Shown here: piece after piece, positions 47,501 to 53,500 of the stretch
How positions within the stretch are numbered: position 1 is the stretch's first letter
Layout of the letters: every line of letters starts with the position of its first letter
Assembly: GCF_056712565.1 (NCBI RefSeq)
Contig: NZ_CM160072.1
DNA length: 64,000 bases
Direction: 5' to 3' (one strand)
Position numbers: made by a program

Positions 47501-50500
47501 CGCTGGGGGTGATTGGCGTGATTTATGAAGCGCGCCCGAACGTGACGGTTGATGTTGCTTCCCTGTGCCTGAAAACCGGTAACGCGGTGATCCTGCGCGG
47601 CGGCAAAGAAACCTGTCGCACTAACGCTGCAACGGTAGCGGTGATTCAGGACGCCCTGAAATCCTGCGGCTTACCGGCGGGTGCCGTGCAGGCAATTGAT
47701 AATCCTGACCGTGCGCTGGTCAGTGAAATGCTGCGTATGGATAAATACATCGACATGCTGATCCCGCGCGGTGGGGCTGGTTTGCATAAACTGTGCCGCG
47801 AGCAGTCGACAATCCCGGTGATCACAGGCGGTATAGGCGTATGCCATATTTACGTTGATGAAAGTGCAGAGATCGCTGAAGCCCTGAAAGTAATTGTCAA
47901 CGCGAAAACTCAGCGACCGAGCACATGTAATACGGTAGAAACGTTGCTGGTAAATAAAAACATCGCAGATAGCTTCCTGCCCGCATTAAGCAAACAAATG
48001 GCGGAAAGCGGCGTGACGTTACACGCTGATGCAGCCGCGCTGGCGCAGTTGCAGGCAGGCCCCGCGAAGGTGGTGGCTGTTAAAGCCGAAGAGTATGACG
48101 ATGAGTTTCTGTCATTAGATTTGAACGTCAAAATCGTTAGCGATCTGGATGACGCCATTGCCCATATTCGTGAACACGGCACGCAACACTCCGATGCGAT
48201 CCTGACCCGCGATATGCGCAACGCCCAGCGTTTTGTTAACGAAGTGGATTCCTCCGCTGTTTACGTTAACGCCTCTACGCGTTTTACCGACGGCGGCCAG
48301 TTTGGTCTGGGGGCGGAAGTTGCGGTAAGCACACAAAAACTCCACGCGCGCGGCCCAATGGGGCTGGAAGCTCTGACCACTTACAAGTGGATCGGCATTG
48401 GTGATTACACCATTCGTGCGTAAATAAAACCGGGTGATGCAAAAGTAGCCATTTGATTCACAAGGCCATTGACGCATCGCCCGGTTAGTTTTAACCTTGT
48501 CCACCGTGATTCACGTTCGTGAACATGTCCTTTCAGGGCCGATATAGCTCAGTTGGTAGAGCAGCGCATTCGTAATGCGAAGGTCGTAGGTTCGACTCCT
48601 ATTATCGGCACCATCAAGAAAATCAATAACTTAGCTTAACTTCTCTAAGAAATTGTATCTTCTGTTATCACTTACAAACGCCTATACGTTGTTATGGGCT
48701 TTGGTAGTTTAACACGTATGGGCGAGTAGTTCCCAGGCTCAACCTCGTAACAAGTTCCTTTGAAGCTGGAAGACGTGCCACCGTCTCTAAACCTTCTACC
48801 AAAACTCTTAGCAAGATGTTCCACACCTGGCGCGGTGTCCAATGATGCTACACGTCGTGAGACGTTGCAGAGGATAAACAGGCTAAATGATGGGAAGAGT
48901 TTTAAGTGCAATAGTGGATTAAAGCCCACCTCTTCAAAACCTAACTTGATCGGGAAAGAATCAAGCTCTAGCACGGTTTCGTCCACCGGAGTACAACGGG
49001 TGCCTGATAAGAGAAGAACTGCTAAGACTTCATAGCTTTTGTGAAAAAGCCCTTTTTAGTGGATACGCCTACGGCGCTTATTTTTTGGTATAACCATCAA
49101 AGGCGCTTTATGGCTCCTATTGTCTTGAAAATGTATCTTTACTTGTATTGTGTTTTATGCGTAGTCTCCCTGTGTAGTATGTAACTTGTTAATTTTCATA
49201 TGAATACAGAGGCAACACGATGAAAAACATTGCAGCTATAAAACGTAATAACCGCAAGATTCACGCTCGTAAGTTCCTGTCTACGCCAGAGGGAAAAGCC
49301 TGGCTAGAGCGAAAGCAACGAGAGAACGAAGAAAGAAAACTCCTTAGTGAGTTGAAATGGCTTAGAGAGGATTTCTGAAAATCTCCAGAACGCAACAAGA
49401 CGCATTCTAACGCTGTTTTCATTGCTTGGTATAGGGATGTATATGTGATGTGTGTTTAATGCGTCTGTGAGCTTGTTTTGTGCCTTATTTTGCATTTTCA
49501 TAATGCAGAAGAGAACACGGAAAACCTTAAAATTAATTATTGGGGTATTTAAGGCTATTTTAAGGGGATTTAAGGGTATTAAACTTGATTTAATTGATTA
49601 AAATATAAACAGATAGCTCTGCATCTTATTGATTTATAAGGTTATTTTTGAATAAAGGTAAATAAAAAATAAATAGCCATAAATAGCTATAAATAGCTAT
49701 AAATACATCTAAATACATATGAATCCCCTCCCTTATGGCTAGATTGCGAGAGGTGCTTAACGCGATTTTTAGCGCCCCCCGATCTGGAAAATCCAGAATC
49801 CCCAAATATCAAGGAGGCATTACGCCTCCTCTTCTTCCTTCTTAATTCGCTGTACCGTTGAAGGAGCAACATTAAAGCTCTCGGCGGTTTTACGCACTGA
49901 CACGCCAGCGGAAAGGGCTTTCTTTATACCTTCCCTATCTACTGCCTTCCCTTTACCACGCTTTGTAGGATTGACGGCTTGCGCTTCTCGTTTACGCTCT
50001 AACATCAGTTCACGTTCACACGTTGCAACTGCCGACAACATCGTAAGCATCATCTTTCCCATCGCGCTTGTAATGTCAGCAATGATTCCTTCTTTGTGAA
50101 ATCGAACAATTACACCTCGATTATTAAGTTGTTCCACTAAGGCAAGAATGTCTAAGGTGTTACGCCCTAAACGATCAAGAGAGTGGACGTGTAAGGTGTC
50201 GCCTTCTCTCAGATAGGATAAACACGCCTGCAATCCTGGACGGTTAGTGTCTTTACCTGACAGCTTATCTTCAAAGACTTTATCAAGCGTTACTCCTGCA
50301 AGCTGGCGATCAGTGTTCTGATCTACAGTGCTCACACGCTTATAACCGATATTGCTCATAAAATCCTCTTAATGTATCGATTTGGCACTACTTCAATGCA
50401 AATGAGTATATCGTATTCATTTGGTCTGTTTCAAGCCTTATAGGTACGGAATATTACACGATTTAGATGTATTCATTTGGTATGCCTAATGGATACACAG

Positions 50501-53500
50501 GGGAATAGATTAAATGGTGTTCTGTTTATACAGGTTTATTTGTAGATCAACAATTTGGCATTTCTAAACAGATGTTTGAACGTTGCCAAATGTCTTGACA
50601 ACACAAGAAAAGGGCTTGCTATGCCACGCATTACACGAAATAAGGCTATAAAAACAAAATAAATTTTAAAATTTGCACAAACGAGAGAACTCATTCGACA
50701 AATAATAGATTAATTTTTAGCCAACAATTTCTGATGGTGCTCTGTAAGCCGCATTACACAAGGATTTGCGAAAGTGATGTAAAAGTGAAGAAAGTAAGAA
50801 TTGAACTTTTAAGCTACTTTTTCATTGAATTTTTAGTATGGAATTACACAGGAATAAGTTAGGGATATTCTATGATTTACACAGGGAATATAGGGGGATT
50901 ATGGCACACACATAGAAAGACATTACACAGAGTGCTATGTGACAAATGGATGTAACGAGAGGTTACATTCAGCTATCTGAAATGCTCTCTGTAAGAAAGT
51001 TGGTAGTAACGATATGTTACATAGACTAATTATTGAATGTAACGATATTACACATCGGAAGATGATTGAATGTAACGGTAGCTCACAGTGAACTAGGGGT
51101 AGGTCATAGTGAACTACCCCCACAGAATTCTGTTACCCCTATCAAGTCTGATACCCCTACCCCTATCAAAACTAATACCCGATAAGAATAAATAACACCT
51201 AGGAAATGATTTCCGATCTATTTAGGAAGTAACCTAGGAAGTGGTTTCCTACCTACTTAGGAAATGAGTTCCTACCTACCTAGGAAATGAGTTCCACCAA
51301 TACTATAATTAAATACTATAATTAAATAATATAAATAATATTCTTTATACTATATAGGTCATAGTGAGCTAGGGGGTAGGTCACTGTGAGCTACCCCCAC
51401 AGAATTCTGTTAATCTTAACTTTTAAAGAGATTTTTACCCTAACAAAATTCTGTTACCCCACCCTAACAGAATTCTGTTAGACACCCCCACAGAAAACTG
51501 TTAGACACCCCCACAGAATTCTGTTACCTATTAGATCATTTATTAAATTACTTATTAAATTATAATATTATATATTTATTTATATGATCTTTTGCCTTCC
51601 GGCGTTAGCTTCACTCTCTGGCAAGCAGCCTTACTCCGCTACCTTTGGGCTTCGTGGCTGGCCCGTTCCGCTCACACCGAAAGCAAAGCGTTACTTTCTT
51701 CGTGTAACTATCGTTGGCGGTAACGCCCACGAAGAAATACTATTGCGCTGTGCGCAGAAGAGTAATCACCTAACCAATCATACTGATTGCTTATGTGTTA
51801 ACTCTATCTCTCTACCTCGTAATTACCCTCCTACACTTAATAACTCTCGTTATTCTCTGTAGTTGTGTAATTACTCGAAGAGAGAGCGGCTAAAGCTCAA
51901 TTACACTCTGCTTTCCTCGTGTAATTTCACTAAGCCTCAATACAATTCCACTTCCTACATTCTGTAGTCGTGTAATTGTTTTCGGTGGAAAAGCCAGAGG
52001 CGACACCGAAAGAGAATTCTGATCTTATTAATCTTATCTATCTTAGTTATCTTACTTACTTATCTTACTTACTTTATCTACTTTATTATTAATAATAGCT
52101 TTATAAGCTCTCTGTAGCTCTCTGACGCAAGAAACAGCATTCAGGAAGGGAATCACCTTAGAAAAGTGTTCTTTGCGTCATAATGTGTTTTATGAAGGAT
52201 TCAGAGGTGTTTCATAACAGGAGTGTATAGAGGATACTTTAATTAATTAAAAATAAGGGGTCTAAATGCTTCTCTAACAGCATTAAGCAGGGTAGGGAAT
52301 GGAAACGCATTGTCTACATATATAAACTCACTACAGGGCTTTACAGAGCGTTTTATAAAGTGACTCTCTATCTTATATCTACCATCACCTTTTCATATAC
52401 CTAACAAATACAAAATAAGCCCCTTAAATAAGCCTCTGGCGAGCTAAACAGCCATTAGATAAGGCAATGTATTGCTTTTATCAAAATCTCGTTAGAACGC
52501 GTTTTAGAGCGTTTTAGCGGATAATGAAGAATAGCACTACACAGAAGAGCACGAATTGCTAAGAAAAAATGTAAGTGCATGAAAAAGATCAGATTTTTTA
52601 TGAAAAGGTATTGACAAATGTTTCTTTATATGTAATAATAGGTATTAGAGGGACAGAAAACATTCTTCTCTAAATAATCAAAATCAATGCACTTTGAAGC
52701 CGTCAGGCTTGCAAGGTGTTTTATTTCTTTTAACTGAATAAGGAGTTTTTTATGAAATGGTTTACACCGGAACACGTCGTCCAGGCATTTAAAAAAGGTG
52801 AGCTTACACGCCACCAAGTAGTAATGAACCGTAATATGGCAAGGAGTCGAGGTTATCCAGAGCGTGAAAAATGTTTTGACGATGCACTGAAAATTATTGA
52901 TGAACTGCGTAAGAAAGAAGCAGAGAAAGAATAATAGACAAGAGGAGGAGAAAACTATGAGCGAAACTAAGAAACCAATTCCGCGCACTTACCTACACGT
53001 TGACCCTGAAATCTTCAAGGTTTTATTTGCTGAAGCCAAGAAAAGGCAAATTATGGTCAGTGATTTGATGTTAGAAATCATTACTGAAGCAGCAGAGAAC
53101 ATCAAACAAAAAAAGGGTAAGTGATCCTCATTCACTTTAGTAGCGCATTAAGCGTGATTTATAAGGAGATTTTTAATGATTAATGAAGAACAATTTGTAA
53201 AAGTTCCTATGTGGATTCTAAAAATAAGCCAAGTAAACGGGCATAAATTTACAGATAGTGCTAAAAACCTTTACTGCTATCTGAAAGGGTTTGATCGTGC
53301 ATTTCCCTCTTACGCTAAGATAGGCGATGTTTTTGGCATAACACCAAGAGCAGCAGAGGAAAGGGTTAAGAAATTGCTCGAAATGGGGTTAATTATAAAA
53401 GATGCACGACCAGGAAGTTCTAATGTCTATCAAGTGGTAGATATTCCACAAGAAGAAGCTAGACAAGAAGCCAAAACACAACAAGAAGCTACCGTTAAAG

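Follow-up and report, generated by a model that had tools for sequence, protein, structure and literature searches.

The window analyzed here is a stretch of 64,000 nucleotides from contig NZ_CM160072.1 (NCBI RefSeq assembly GCF_056712565.1), identical in sequence to the Escherichia coli chromosome of strain GPEC548. It contains a 12.8 kb island of low GC content (35-39%), placed at a tRNA-Thr downstream of proBA and tRNA-Thr(CGT). Inside this island, the interval 50360-52751 (2,392 bp) has no conserved open reading frame (ORF) and most probably constitutes the cis-acting control region of a phage-satellite-like integrative island, with an iteron-type replication origin at its core. The putative initiator, designated Rep, is the winged helix-turn-helix (wHTH) protein encoded at 53176-53829.

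The proposed mechanism comprises three steps. The N-terminal winged helix of Rep would bind the five palindromic A-type iterons at 51399-51526, as suggested by the co-variation between the protein and the repeats. Rep binding would then open the adjoining tract of 96% AT (51530-51590), a role to which its position and duplex stability point. Subsequently, and more speculatively, Rep may recruit the host replication proteins, possibly through a C-terminal tip (...DFDIPF) that resembles the tip of SSB, the protein that binds single-stranded DNA. The remaining repeat families would be the iterons of four other Rep specificity types, which belong to sister islands. The original prediction, made from the window's sequence, admitted either an iteron-controlled origin or a dense array of regulator-binding sites. 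The comparative evidence, i.e. the initiator families matched by Rep, the pairing between Rep and iterons and the AT tracts adjoining the arrays, supports the origin.

The non-coding region and its repeats

The ORF-free interval extends from the start codon of a serine recombinase gene to the first small gene of the next operon (52752). RefSeq holds no annotation for it, either in the identical strain or in most relatives. The longest ORF within the interval (92 amino acids, 51584-51862) is interrupted by many one-nucleotide insertions or deletions (indels) in 14 homologous sequences, and the earlier remark that the stretch lacks a convincing ORF is borne out, since no conserved ORF is present.

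All the repeat families named in the original prediction were found where it had placed them, at 10 to several hundred times the counts of shuffled sequence. The units of CCCCCACAGAATTCTGTTA type are located at 51115, 51392, 51436, 51460, 51483 and 51506, with spacings of 44, 24, 23 and 23 from the second unit onwards, and have 11 matches on both strands compared with 0.04 expected in shuffled sequence. The GGAAATGAGTTCC palindromes are located at 51201, 51236, 51259 and 51282, and AATACTATAATTA forms a tandem of 3.1 copies at 51299-51338. A long direct repeat (51077-51140 and 51355-51418) matches at 93% over 40 nucleotides. The motif ATTACAC occurs at 50453, 50630, 50753, 50843, 50922 and 51047, with a variant TTTACAC at 50878; the region contains 10 exact copies versus 0.53 expected, including four copies at 51865-51976. 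The latter had been described as a separate family, CGTGTAAYT. The four sites exist, but they are ATTACAC read on the opposite strand, lying in hairpin arms. Similarly, TGTAACG corresponds to the arms of the GTAACGnnnnnGTTAC palindromes at 50952 and 51006. An additional family, GTATTCATTTGG, which had been overlooked, is present in both orientations at 50374-50497.

The six families had been regarded as parallel parts of a single origin. This view did not hold, as most of them are iterons of five different initiator specificities and only ACAGAATTCTGT among the listed families fits the Rep of this island. The CTTA-rich tract at 52020-52100 (plus strand), previously proposed as an unwinding element, is indeed there as a microsatellite-like AT tract of CTTA/CTTATCTTA units, whose copy number differs among otherwise 96%-identical loci. 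However, it ranks third in low stability, and the likely unwinding element is 51530-51590 instead.

Pairing of Rep types with iteron families

The evidence that carries the origin model comes from the comparison of 37 loci, including, besides the window, 7 further E. coli genomes, 4 species-representative genomes (essentially all Escherichia) and 25 loci from IMG/VR. Among 36 Rep proteins, five types that look unrelated to one another can be told apart by the first 95 residues: A (11 proteins), B (11), C (6), D (6) and E (2). The C-terminal halves are of two main types, which recombine independently of the N-terminal type. Each N-terminal type was assigned one iteron family: ACAGAATTCTGTTA to type A, TAGGTCAYWGTGARCTA to type B, GTAACGnnnnnGTTAC to type C, AGGAAATGAGTTCC to type D and TACCCCTATCAA to type E. 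The family assigned to the resident Rep type is also the most abundant iteron family in 36/36 loci, 28 of which were looked at only after the pairing rule had been set; this count overstates the independent events, because the loci are related sequences.

The loci belong to two backbone lineages, which differ in the 1.1 kb that separate array and gene, in the Rep C-terminal domain, in the next gene (approximately 23% identity) and in the capsid protein (approximately 71% identity). Types A to D are each present on both backbones. About 1.1 kb of independently assorting sequence lies between the array and the rep gene, and the allele of a small ribbon-helix-helix (RHH)-like gene sited between them assorts freely. 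Consequently, physical linkage alone does not explain the pairing, which has persisted through recombination, in the way expected of a protein with its binding site. The pattern supports the view that the DNA-binding specificity of Rep fits the iterons, and the Rep DNA-binding domain and the origin appear to have been exchanged between backbones as one module.

Organization of the iteron cassettes

The cognate array of the window is composed of five ACAGAATTCTGTTA palindromes (51399-51526), the last four spaced at 24, 23 and 23 bp. Arrays of at least five A-type copies occur in 11/11 loci with an A-type Rep, and no more than two copies are found elsewhere. The array is followed by AT-rich tract 2 (51530-51590, 96% AT), which contains the least stable 50 bp of the region and is the proposed unwinding element of the active origin. 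In 50-bp windows, the lowest duplex stabilities are those of 51535-51584 (dG -42.9) and 51305-51354 (dG -43.2), compared with a mean of -60.7 and a standard deviation of 5.6. Both segments sit immediately to the right of an iteron array, the first beside the A-type and the second beside the D-type array. Across the loci, the cognate array adjoins an AT tract (at least 88% AT over at least 50 bp) in 35/36 cases. The paired array together with its adjoining AT tract supports the existence of Rep-bound iterons beside an unwinding element.

The order of the iteron families along the DNA is constant, C-B-A-E-D, and each island ends in its cognate array beside an AT tract, as in CCCC, (C)BB..., BAAAAA, BAEEE and CBAEEDDD. 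The arrays of the other Rep types comprise two to five units, mostly about 22-24 bp apart, except for the C-type palindromes, which are 33-55 bp apart. In the window the order is CC BB A EE DDD(D) [AT tract] BB AAAAA [AT tract]. It begins with two non-cognate C-type palindromes (GTAACGnnnnnGTTAC, 50952-51020), of which degenerate copies reach as far as 51085; in loci with a C-type Rep four full copies are present in 6/6. These are followed by a first pair of non-cognate B-type iterons on the plus strand (TAGGTCAYWGTGARCTA, 21-bp spacing, 51079-51116), a lone A-type iteron (51122-51135) at the edge of the first cassette and two non-cognate E-type iterons, also on the plus strand (TACCCCTATCAA, 24-bp spacing, 51134-51180). 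The D-type array that comes next (51201-51296) has four AGGAAATGAGTTCC palindromes spaced at 35, 23 and 23 bp and closely resembles, when compared by eye, the array of a D-type locus (L022). This array is complete but orphan, because the island has no D-type Rep. It adjoins AT-rich tract 1 (51299-51354, 94% AT), which contains three AATACTATAATTA units and is the proposed unwinding element of the D cassette. The second B-type pair (51355-51393, plus strand) forms, with 51399-51412, the second copy of the 51077-51140 duplication, so that a duplicated B-B-A junction (51077-51140 and 51355-51418) precedes the A-type cassette.

The window thus contains two complete cassettes, the orphan D-type (51201-51354) and the cognate A-type (51399-51590), besides remnants of B, C and E. 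Such composite loci number four, the window included, and the cassette closest to rep is the cognate one in 4/4.

Rep as an initiator or as a regulator

Rep has 217 residues (53176-53829, plus strand) and a predicted architecture consisting of an A-type winged helix (approximately residues 12-87), an acidic linker that is long and disordered, and a small C-terminal domain of helices that ends in the tip ...EDFDIPF. Rep and the representatives of the other four N-terminal types match only phage replication-initiation PHROG families (E 7.6e-11 to 9e-6), described as 'replication initiation protein', 'O-like' and 'DnaD-like helicase loader'; families of regulators or transcription factors are absent from these matches. 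A C-terminal [DS][IL]PF is present in 34/36 Rep proteins, and in the window it takes the form YEDFDIPF (53806-53829). This tip resembles that of the E. coli SSB, DDDIPF, which recruits PriA, DnaG, the chi subunit and others. The SSB tip is conserved and serves to recruit many replication proteins (PMC5872125).

Several observations weigh against an origin served by this protein. Neither DnaA boxes (TTATCCACA with at most one mismatch, or TTWTNCACA) nor a consensus for the integration host factor (IHF) were found in 50360-52751. The iterons are located 1.1-1.35 kb upstream of the rep operon, whereas those of lambda lie inside the O gene and those of SaPI/PICI just after rep, and two parts of the region, 50500-51075 and 51590-52600 (about 1.3 kb), are outside the reach of the model. 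No helicase, helicase loader or primase was recognizable in the island by PHROG and NCBIfam profile searches. Pfam yields for Rep a weak HTH_36 match alone (independent E-value, i-E, 0.0011), and the structure model is of low confidence (pLDDT 60). In Foldseek searches it matches generic winged helices only, with repressors ranked at least as high as plasmid initiators. The PGAP annotation reads 'transcriptional regulator' or 'HTH domain-containing'. The relatedness of the loci, which inflates the pairing count, is to be added to these points. Moreover, NCBIfam and PDB sequence searches with Rep gave no match, and RepA_N was not detected by Pfam, the RepA_N structures 4pql and 4pta appearing in Foldseek at E 0.04-0.13.

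The PGAP label and the weak Pfam support past an HTH would equally suit a transcriptional regulator, with the arrays acting as operators that govern island gene expression. The best Foldseek matches, which are repressors of the Fur, ArsR and MarR types, agree with such a role, and co-variation between protein and site is expected of a repressor and its operator as much as of an initiator and its iterons. On the other hand, all five N-terminal types match replication-initiator families only, and the arrays are 1.0-1.35 kb away from the sole good promoter, in a sequence depleted of promoter-like sites (5 found versus 13.8 expected in the scanned 49000-53300). In addition, the arrays adjoin 60-100 bp of approximately 95% AT with no promoter, and the SSB-like tail and the phage nuclease chimeras of Odn design described below are better suited to an origin. 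A purely regulatory role is for these reasons quite improbable. The operon promoter occupies the rightmost 150 bp of the non-coding region: a sigma-70-like promoter of the s1-RHH-Rep operon is located at 52611-52639 on the plus strand (TTGACA-17-AATAAT, 11/12 matches, with a TG extension).

The left end of the region

The left 140 bp look like the res site of the neighbouring serine recombinase. This protein of the resolvase/invertase family (179 amino acids; 49820-50359, minus strand; phrog_125, E 6e-55; 'recombinase family protein' in RefSeq) is encoded divergently from the non-coding region. The res-like cluster of GTATTCATTTGG half-sites (50374-50497) has units at 50374(+), 50398(-), 50413(+), 50469(+) and 50485(-), the distal pair of which forms a 28-bp inverted site (12+4+12). 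In loci with a type I recombinase, GTATTCATTTGG is matched at three or more of its four conserved positions in 9/9 cases, and the type II recombinase (62% amino acid identity to type I) is accompanied by a different motif, GTGTAGTGAT, in the same layout in 15/15 loci. The resolvase-res systems of Tn3 and gamma-delta likewise place about 125 bp with several inverted 12-bp half-sites ahead of a small serine recombinase gene, and the site most distant from the gene measures 28 bp (12+4+12). In the islands the motif varies with the recombinase type, the module has no transposase, and the number and spacing of the subsites are read from the sequence alone. The function of the putative site could be multimer resolution, autoregulation or something else. 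A recombinase-driven invertible switch was also considered and rejected: no minus-strand similarity exists between any two of the 37 non-coding regions, hence there is no evidence of inversion.

The res-like cluster is followed, with some overlap, by six ATTACAC(A/G) and one TTTACAC (50453-51053, plus strand). Within this stretch, all family members have conserved a block at 50651-50860, in which ATTACAC motifs and indels of single bases are found. The search for an independent context of the 50688-50882 block was unsuccessful, as the 'isolated' matches proved to be the same island truncated by IS26.

Repeat arrays such as the seven ATTACAC-like units might also be a pac or cos packaging signal for the terminase of a helper phage, or a partition site. 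A satellite depends on a signal for packaging, the island yielded no terminase gene, and the over-represented ATTACAC does not track the Rep type. For the ATTACAC block only, packaging is compatible with the origin model for 51077-51590. As an explanation of the arrays it is improbable: the phased arrays follow the Rep N-terminal domain and no phage feature, none of 50,697 phage records is similar in DNA to the region, and a gene for a partition ATPase was not found.

The hairpin-rich segment

To the right of the active cassette lies a hairpin-rich, backbone-specific segment (51590-52015), 96% conserved in 15 loci, whose arms carry AATTACAC/GTGTAATT. The fold energy of 51580-52020 is well below that of shuffled sequences (z = -5.2 on the plus and -8.8 on the minus strand), with local windows reaching z = -7.6. 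The 96% conservation combined with the many one-nucleotide indels indicates that the block is constrained and not coding.

These features would be expected if all or part of the region, especially 51590-52015, encoded a structured non-coding RNA, e.g. a replication primer or a regulatory RNA. However, no match was obtained in Rfam at gathering thresholds, and a permissive search (E up to 5) returned only a chance-level snoRNA (E 1.9). Compensatory changes were found in 0 of 147 predicted pairs, and several substitutions disrupt stems uncompensated, although the 15 sequences, at 96% identity, differ too little for the test to be fair. Neither a clear promoter nor a clear terminator flanks 51590-52015, and backbone 1 has at this position a different, less structured sequence with only about 40 nucleotides in common. 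Furthermore, the strongest z-scores, at 51350-51600, arise because the iterons are themselves palindromic. An RNA gene is therefore rather unlikely. A single-strand initiation or primosome assembly signal, a transcript or a packaging signal are possibilities for both this block and 50651-50860. The Rep C-terminal domain is perfectly associated with the hairpin block; a functional coupling between the two was rejected, since the two backbone lineages account for the association.

Distribution of the island family

The non-coding region was found in 726/5,426 complete E. coli genomes (approximately 13%), nearly always in the chromosome. No genuine plasmid match was obtained, only a mislabelled chromosome and one partial match. 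The scan of 100,044 species-representative genomes yielded no matches outside Escherichia except for two short contigs labelled 'Bacillota MAG', which probably represent contamination. The module common to all loci is formed by the recombinase, 1.5-2.4 kb of non-coding DNA, the small gene s1, an optional RHH-like gene and the wHTH protein, and it is found in two kinds of island. The first is integrated at thrW or leuX and contains capsid and tail genes. The second is integrated in the thiM leader and contains GmrSD or HNH genes, without structural genes. In two islands of the second kind, L002 (3843-3938 and 12743-12839) and L008 (4397-4492 and 12127-12223), a thiamine pyrophosphate (TPP) riboswitch is annotated on both flanks, so that the integration at thiM appears to duplicate the riboswitch.

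This distribution also bears on whether the region might be functionless, either as decayed coding sequence or as a known family of insertion sequences (IS) or miniature inverted-repeat transposable elements (MITE). The region is indeed a mosaic with insertions, deletions and a 277-bp duplication-insertion, and in some strains it has received IS2, IS1 or IS26. Nevertheless, such an origin is barely credible. The region is present once per island and is not dispersed (a median of one place per genome in the 726 carriers), and its position and length of 1.5-2.4 kb are constant in every family member that retains the recombinase. Its blocks have kept 77-96% conservation between backbones with proteins that share 23-71% identity. 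Neither inversions nor transposon-like ends are seen.

Island genes and boundaries

The island is delimited by a 20-bp direct repeat, ACTCCTATTATCGGCACCAT, on the plus strand. The left copy (attL, 48595-48614) is at the 3' end of tRNA-Thr(CGT) (48538-48613) and the right copy (attR) is at 61340-61359. The gene order is serine recombinase (minus strand), non-coding stretch, two tiny genes, wHTH protein, several unknowns, major capsid homologue, tape-measure-like protein, tail protein and tyrosine integrase. The first tiny gene, s1 (52752-52934, plus strand), encodes a conserved 60-residue protein and served as the anchor for finding the related loci. The second (52957-53124, plus strand) encodes a 55-residue protein that is RHH-like by reading of the sequence only, without database support; a PDB sequence search with it gave no match. 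Two allelic types of this gene exist among the loci. The loci with a D-type Rep (L008, L022, L030, L031, L036 and L037) have no RHH-like gene between s1 and rep in 6/6 cases.

The cargo includes a homologue of the major capsid protein (55929-56957, plus strand; phrog_29, E 1e-13), which has merely 24% identity to the capsid proteins of Pseudomonas myophages and no close phage relative. The tape-measure-like protein (57263-59092, plus strand; phrog_16051, E 2.6e-53) is 30-36% identical to tape-measure proteins of E. coli and Klebsiella phages of 147-150 kb. The tail tube initiator/completion homologue (59126-59839, plus strand) has 58-61% identity to phi92 gp135 and other Stephanstirmvirinae proteins. 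In the RefSeq coordinates, the tyrosine integrase is encoded at 59921-61198 on the minus strand. Just past attR, 61513-61851 encodes the N-terminal piece of a P4-type integrase (Arm DNA-binding domain), apparently left over from an earlier island at thrW.

Comparison with known replication origins

An iteron origin as such is of a known kind. The lambda origin has 4-5 palindromic iterons about 20-24 bp apart beside an AT-rich unwinding tract and no DnaA boxes. The initiator O has two domains, an N-terminal wHTH that sets the origin specificity and an exchangeable C-terminal part. The island shares the palindromic iterons, the AT tract, the two-domain layout of the putative initiator and the lack of DnaA boxes, and its Rep matches the PHROG 'replication initiation O-like'. 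On the other hand, the lambda origin is inside the initiator gene and the island origin would be 1.1-1.35 kb upstream of the rep operon. In addition, the island lacks a P-like helicase loader and its Rep has the SSB-like ...DFDIPF tip.

The satellites of the SaPI/PICI group also encode an initiator with matched iterons that flank or abut an AT-rich region. Unlike them, the island has a Rep without primase or helicase domain, a putative origin upstream and not downstream of rep, no recognized regulator of the alpA or stl type, and the integrase at the far end. Its capsid, tape-measure and tail-tube-initiator homologues are related to a virulent phage family. The PICI/SaPI layout was not found, as the PHROG and NCBIfam searches gave no primase/helicase, alpA or terS-like matches.

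The iteron plasmids F, P1, R6K, RK2 and pSC101 share with the island the phased direct repeats for a wHTH initiator, the adjoining unwinding element and the existence of extra iteron clusters beyond the minimal origin, which in plasmids serve copy control. However, the extra arrays of the island are of other specificity types and not those of the resident Rep, there are no DnaA boxes, and the island is normally integrated in the chromosome.

Phage chimeras and the candidate satellite

Only four phages, all of them virulent Stephanstirmvirinae, were matched by tblastn with the five Rep N-terminal domains: inny and muut (Justusliebigvirus), as well as Mt1B1_P17 and BI-EHEC (Phapecoctavirus; BI-EHEC accession OL505078). 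The architecture of the corresponding genes was obtained from inny, muut and Mt1B1_P17, BI-EHEC being known from its tblastn match alone. Each of the three genes joins an island-type Rep N-terminal domain to a wHTH core of D type, after which comes a C-terminal domain of about 120 residues. The inny_184 gene (L039:5028-6131) carries a C-type domain (88% amino acid identity; 95-96% nucleotide identity over 625-720 nucleotides) and muut_154 (L040:3004-4002) an E-type domain (88-89% amino acid identity; 95% nucleotide identity over 430 nucleotides). The A-type domain of Mt1B1_P17 (QNJ49226, L041:3001-3987) has 100% amino acid identity over 104 residues and 99.2% nucleotide identity. The D core of the chimeras is approximately 91% identical to that of the islands, and no B-type chimera was found among the tblastn matches.

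Pfam recognizes in inny_184 two HTH_36 domains and MUG113 (i-E 5.4e-4), as well as, weakly, T5orf172 (0.13), the latter two belonging to the GIY-YIG clan of nucleases. The C-terminal domain of the chimeras has homologues among phage homing-endonuclease genes, such as ICP1 tcgB and an endonuclease of phi92. Two of the phages carry, directly upstream of the chimera, the RHH-like gene of the islands, muut_153 (L040:2785-2952) and inny_185 (L039:4808-4990). The muut_153 protein is 100% identical to the product of 52957-53124 in the window. The expression of this small island regulator by the phage could be a second counter-measure. Iteron arrays were absent from the 74 kb of these phages that were scanned, which gave only chance-level single matches, and from the phage records as a whole.

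The tape-measure and tail-tube-initiator genes, both with relatives in phi92/phAPEC8-like phages, are neighbours in phi92-like phages, as they are in the island (57263-59839). The chimeras together with the likeness of the tail genes make the island a candidate satellite of Stephanstirmvirinae and its putative origin the probable target of a phage counter-attack. The island family, previously undescribed, appears to parasitise phi92-like viruses, and a satellite with its own capsid and tail-length genes would be unusual.

The closest parallel is the PLE/ICP1 system. The ICP1 protein Odn mimics the DNA-binding domain of the PLE RepA and requires the iterons to cut the PLE origin, and it is thought to drive the diversification of PLE replicons (PMC8263062). 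The phage chimeras parallel Odn in design, and they are predicted by analogy to cleave the island origin. As in the islands, the PLE is an integrative island associated with a virulent myophage, its origin consists of semi-palindromic iterons in non-coding DNA, and the N-terminal DNA-binding domain of the initiator and the iterons form a module exchangeable across island backbones (PMC8263062). In a minority of ICP1 phages, such a DNA-binding domain is fused to a T5orf172/GIY-YIG-type domain akin to homing endonucleases (PMC8263062).

The two systems differ in the host, in the phage family (here Stephanstirmvirinae) and in the initiator family (here HTH_36, with no RepA_N match). The PLE have two specificity types, whereas the present islands have five, retain nested remnants of further iteron families and in some cases contain two complete cassettes. 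The identity of Odn is 42%, compared with the 88-100% of the variable domain and about 91% of the D core in the present chimeras, which have tandem wHTH domains, a variable A, C or E and the constant D core. In contrast with ICP1, two of the phages also carry the island RHH-like gene. The system described here may resemble PLE in its working, but it is not a PLE homologue.

The ensemble may tentatively be read, with slightly less than even confidence, as an arms race parallel to that of PLE and ICP1. The islands would parasitise phi92/phAPEC8-like phages, some of which would answer with dual-headed origin-directed nucleases made from captured Rep domains. The iteron families, their nested order and the orphan cassettes would then record switches that allowed escape from cleavage. 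On this reading, two phages may also have captured the small RHH-like regulator of the islands. B would be the present escape type, given that no B-type chimera was found, and the orphan D cassette would be a liability, a decoy or a sensor for the constant D domain of the phages.

Other features of the window

Outside the island, at 17213-22519, an orphan pair of type VI secretion genes, Hcp (TssD) and VgrG, is followed by two low-GC genes (35-38% GC, GC skew up to +0.38) with no family match, after which come fragments of an ISAs1 transposase and of an integrative-conjugative-element protein. The repeat-derived RNA naRNA4 (CssrE) is present in three copies above the Rfam gathering thresholds (30104-30181, 32837-32913 and 33578-33655).

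Significance

No literature on the island family or on an Odn-like gene in Stephanstirmvirinae was found in the library consulted, which is incomplete. As far as the literature searched shows, the new aspects are the five Rep-iteron specificities that can be exchanged, the nested order in which they occur and the orphan cassettes in tandem, as well as the SSB-like tip of the initiator, the placement of the origin in a 1.5-2.4 kb cluster of cis-acting sites and the phage-borne Rep-domain nuclease chimeras.

If these conclusions are true, an unannotated gap of 2.4 kb in approximately 13% of the complete E. coli genomes is the module that governs replication and control in a new family of islands, of two gene layouts. 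The SSB-like tip suggests how replication could start without an encoded helicase, loader or primase. The islands would provide five orthogonal Rep-iteron pairs on interchangeable backbones for the study of initiator-origin recognition, possibly usable for building compatible replicons. With the chimeras, a virus would be known for only the second time to have weaponised the origin-binding domain of its parasite, in this case in a genetically tractable host. Finally, the islands could affect the success of the phages isolated for the therapy of avian-pathogenic and uropathogenic E. coli.

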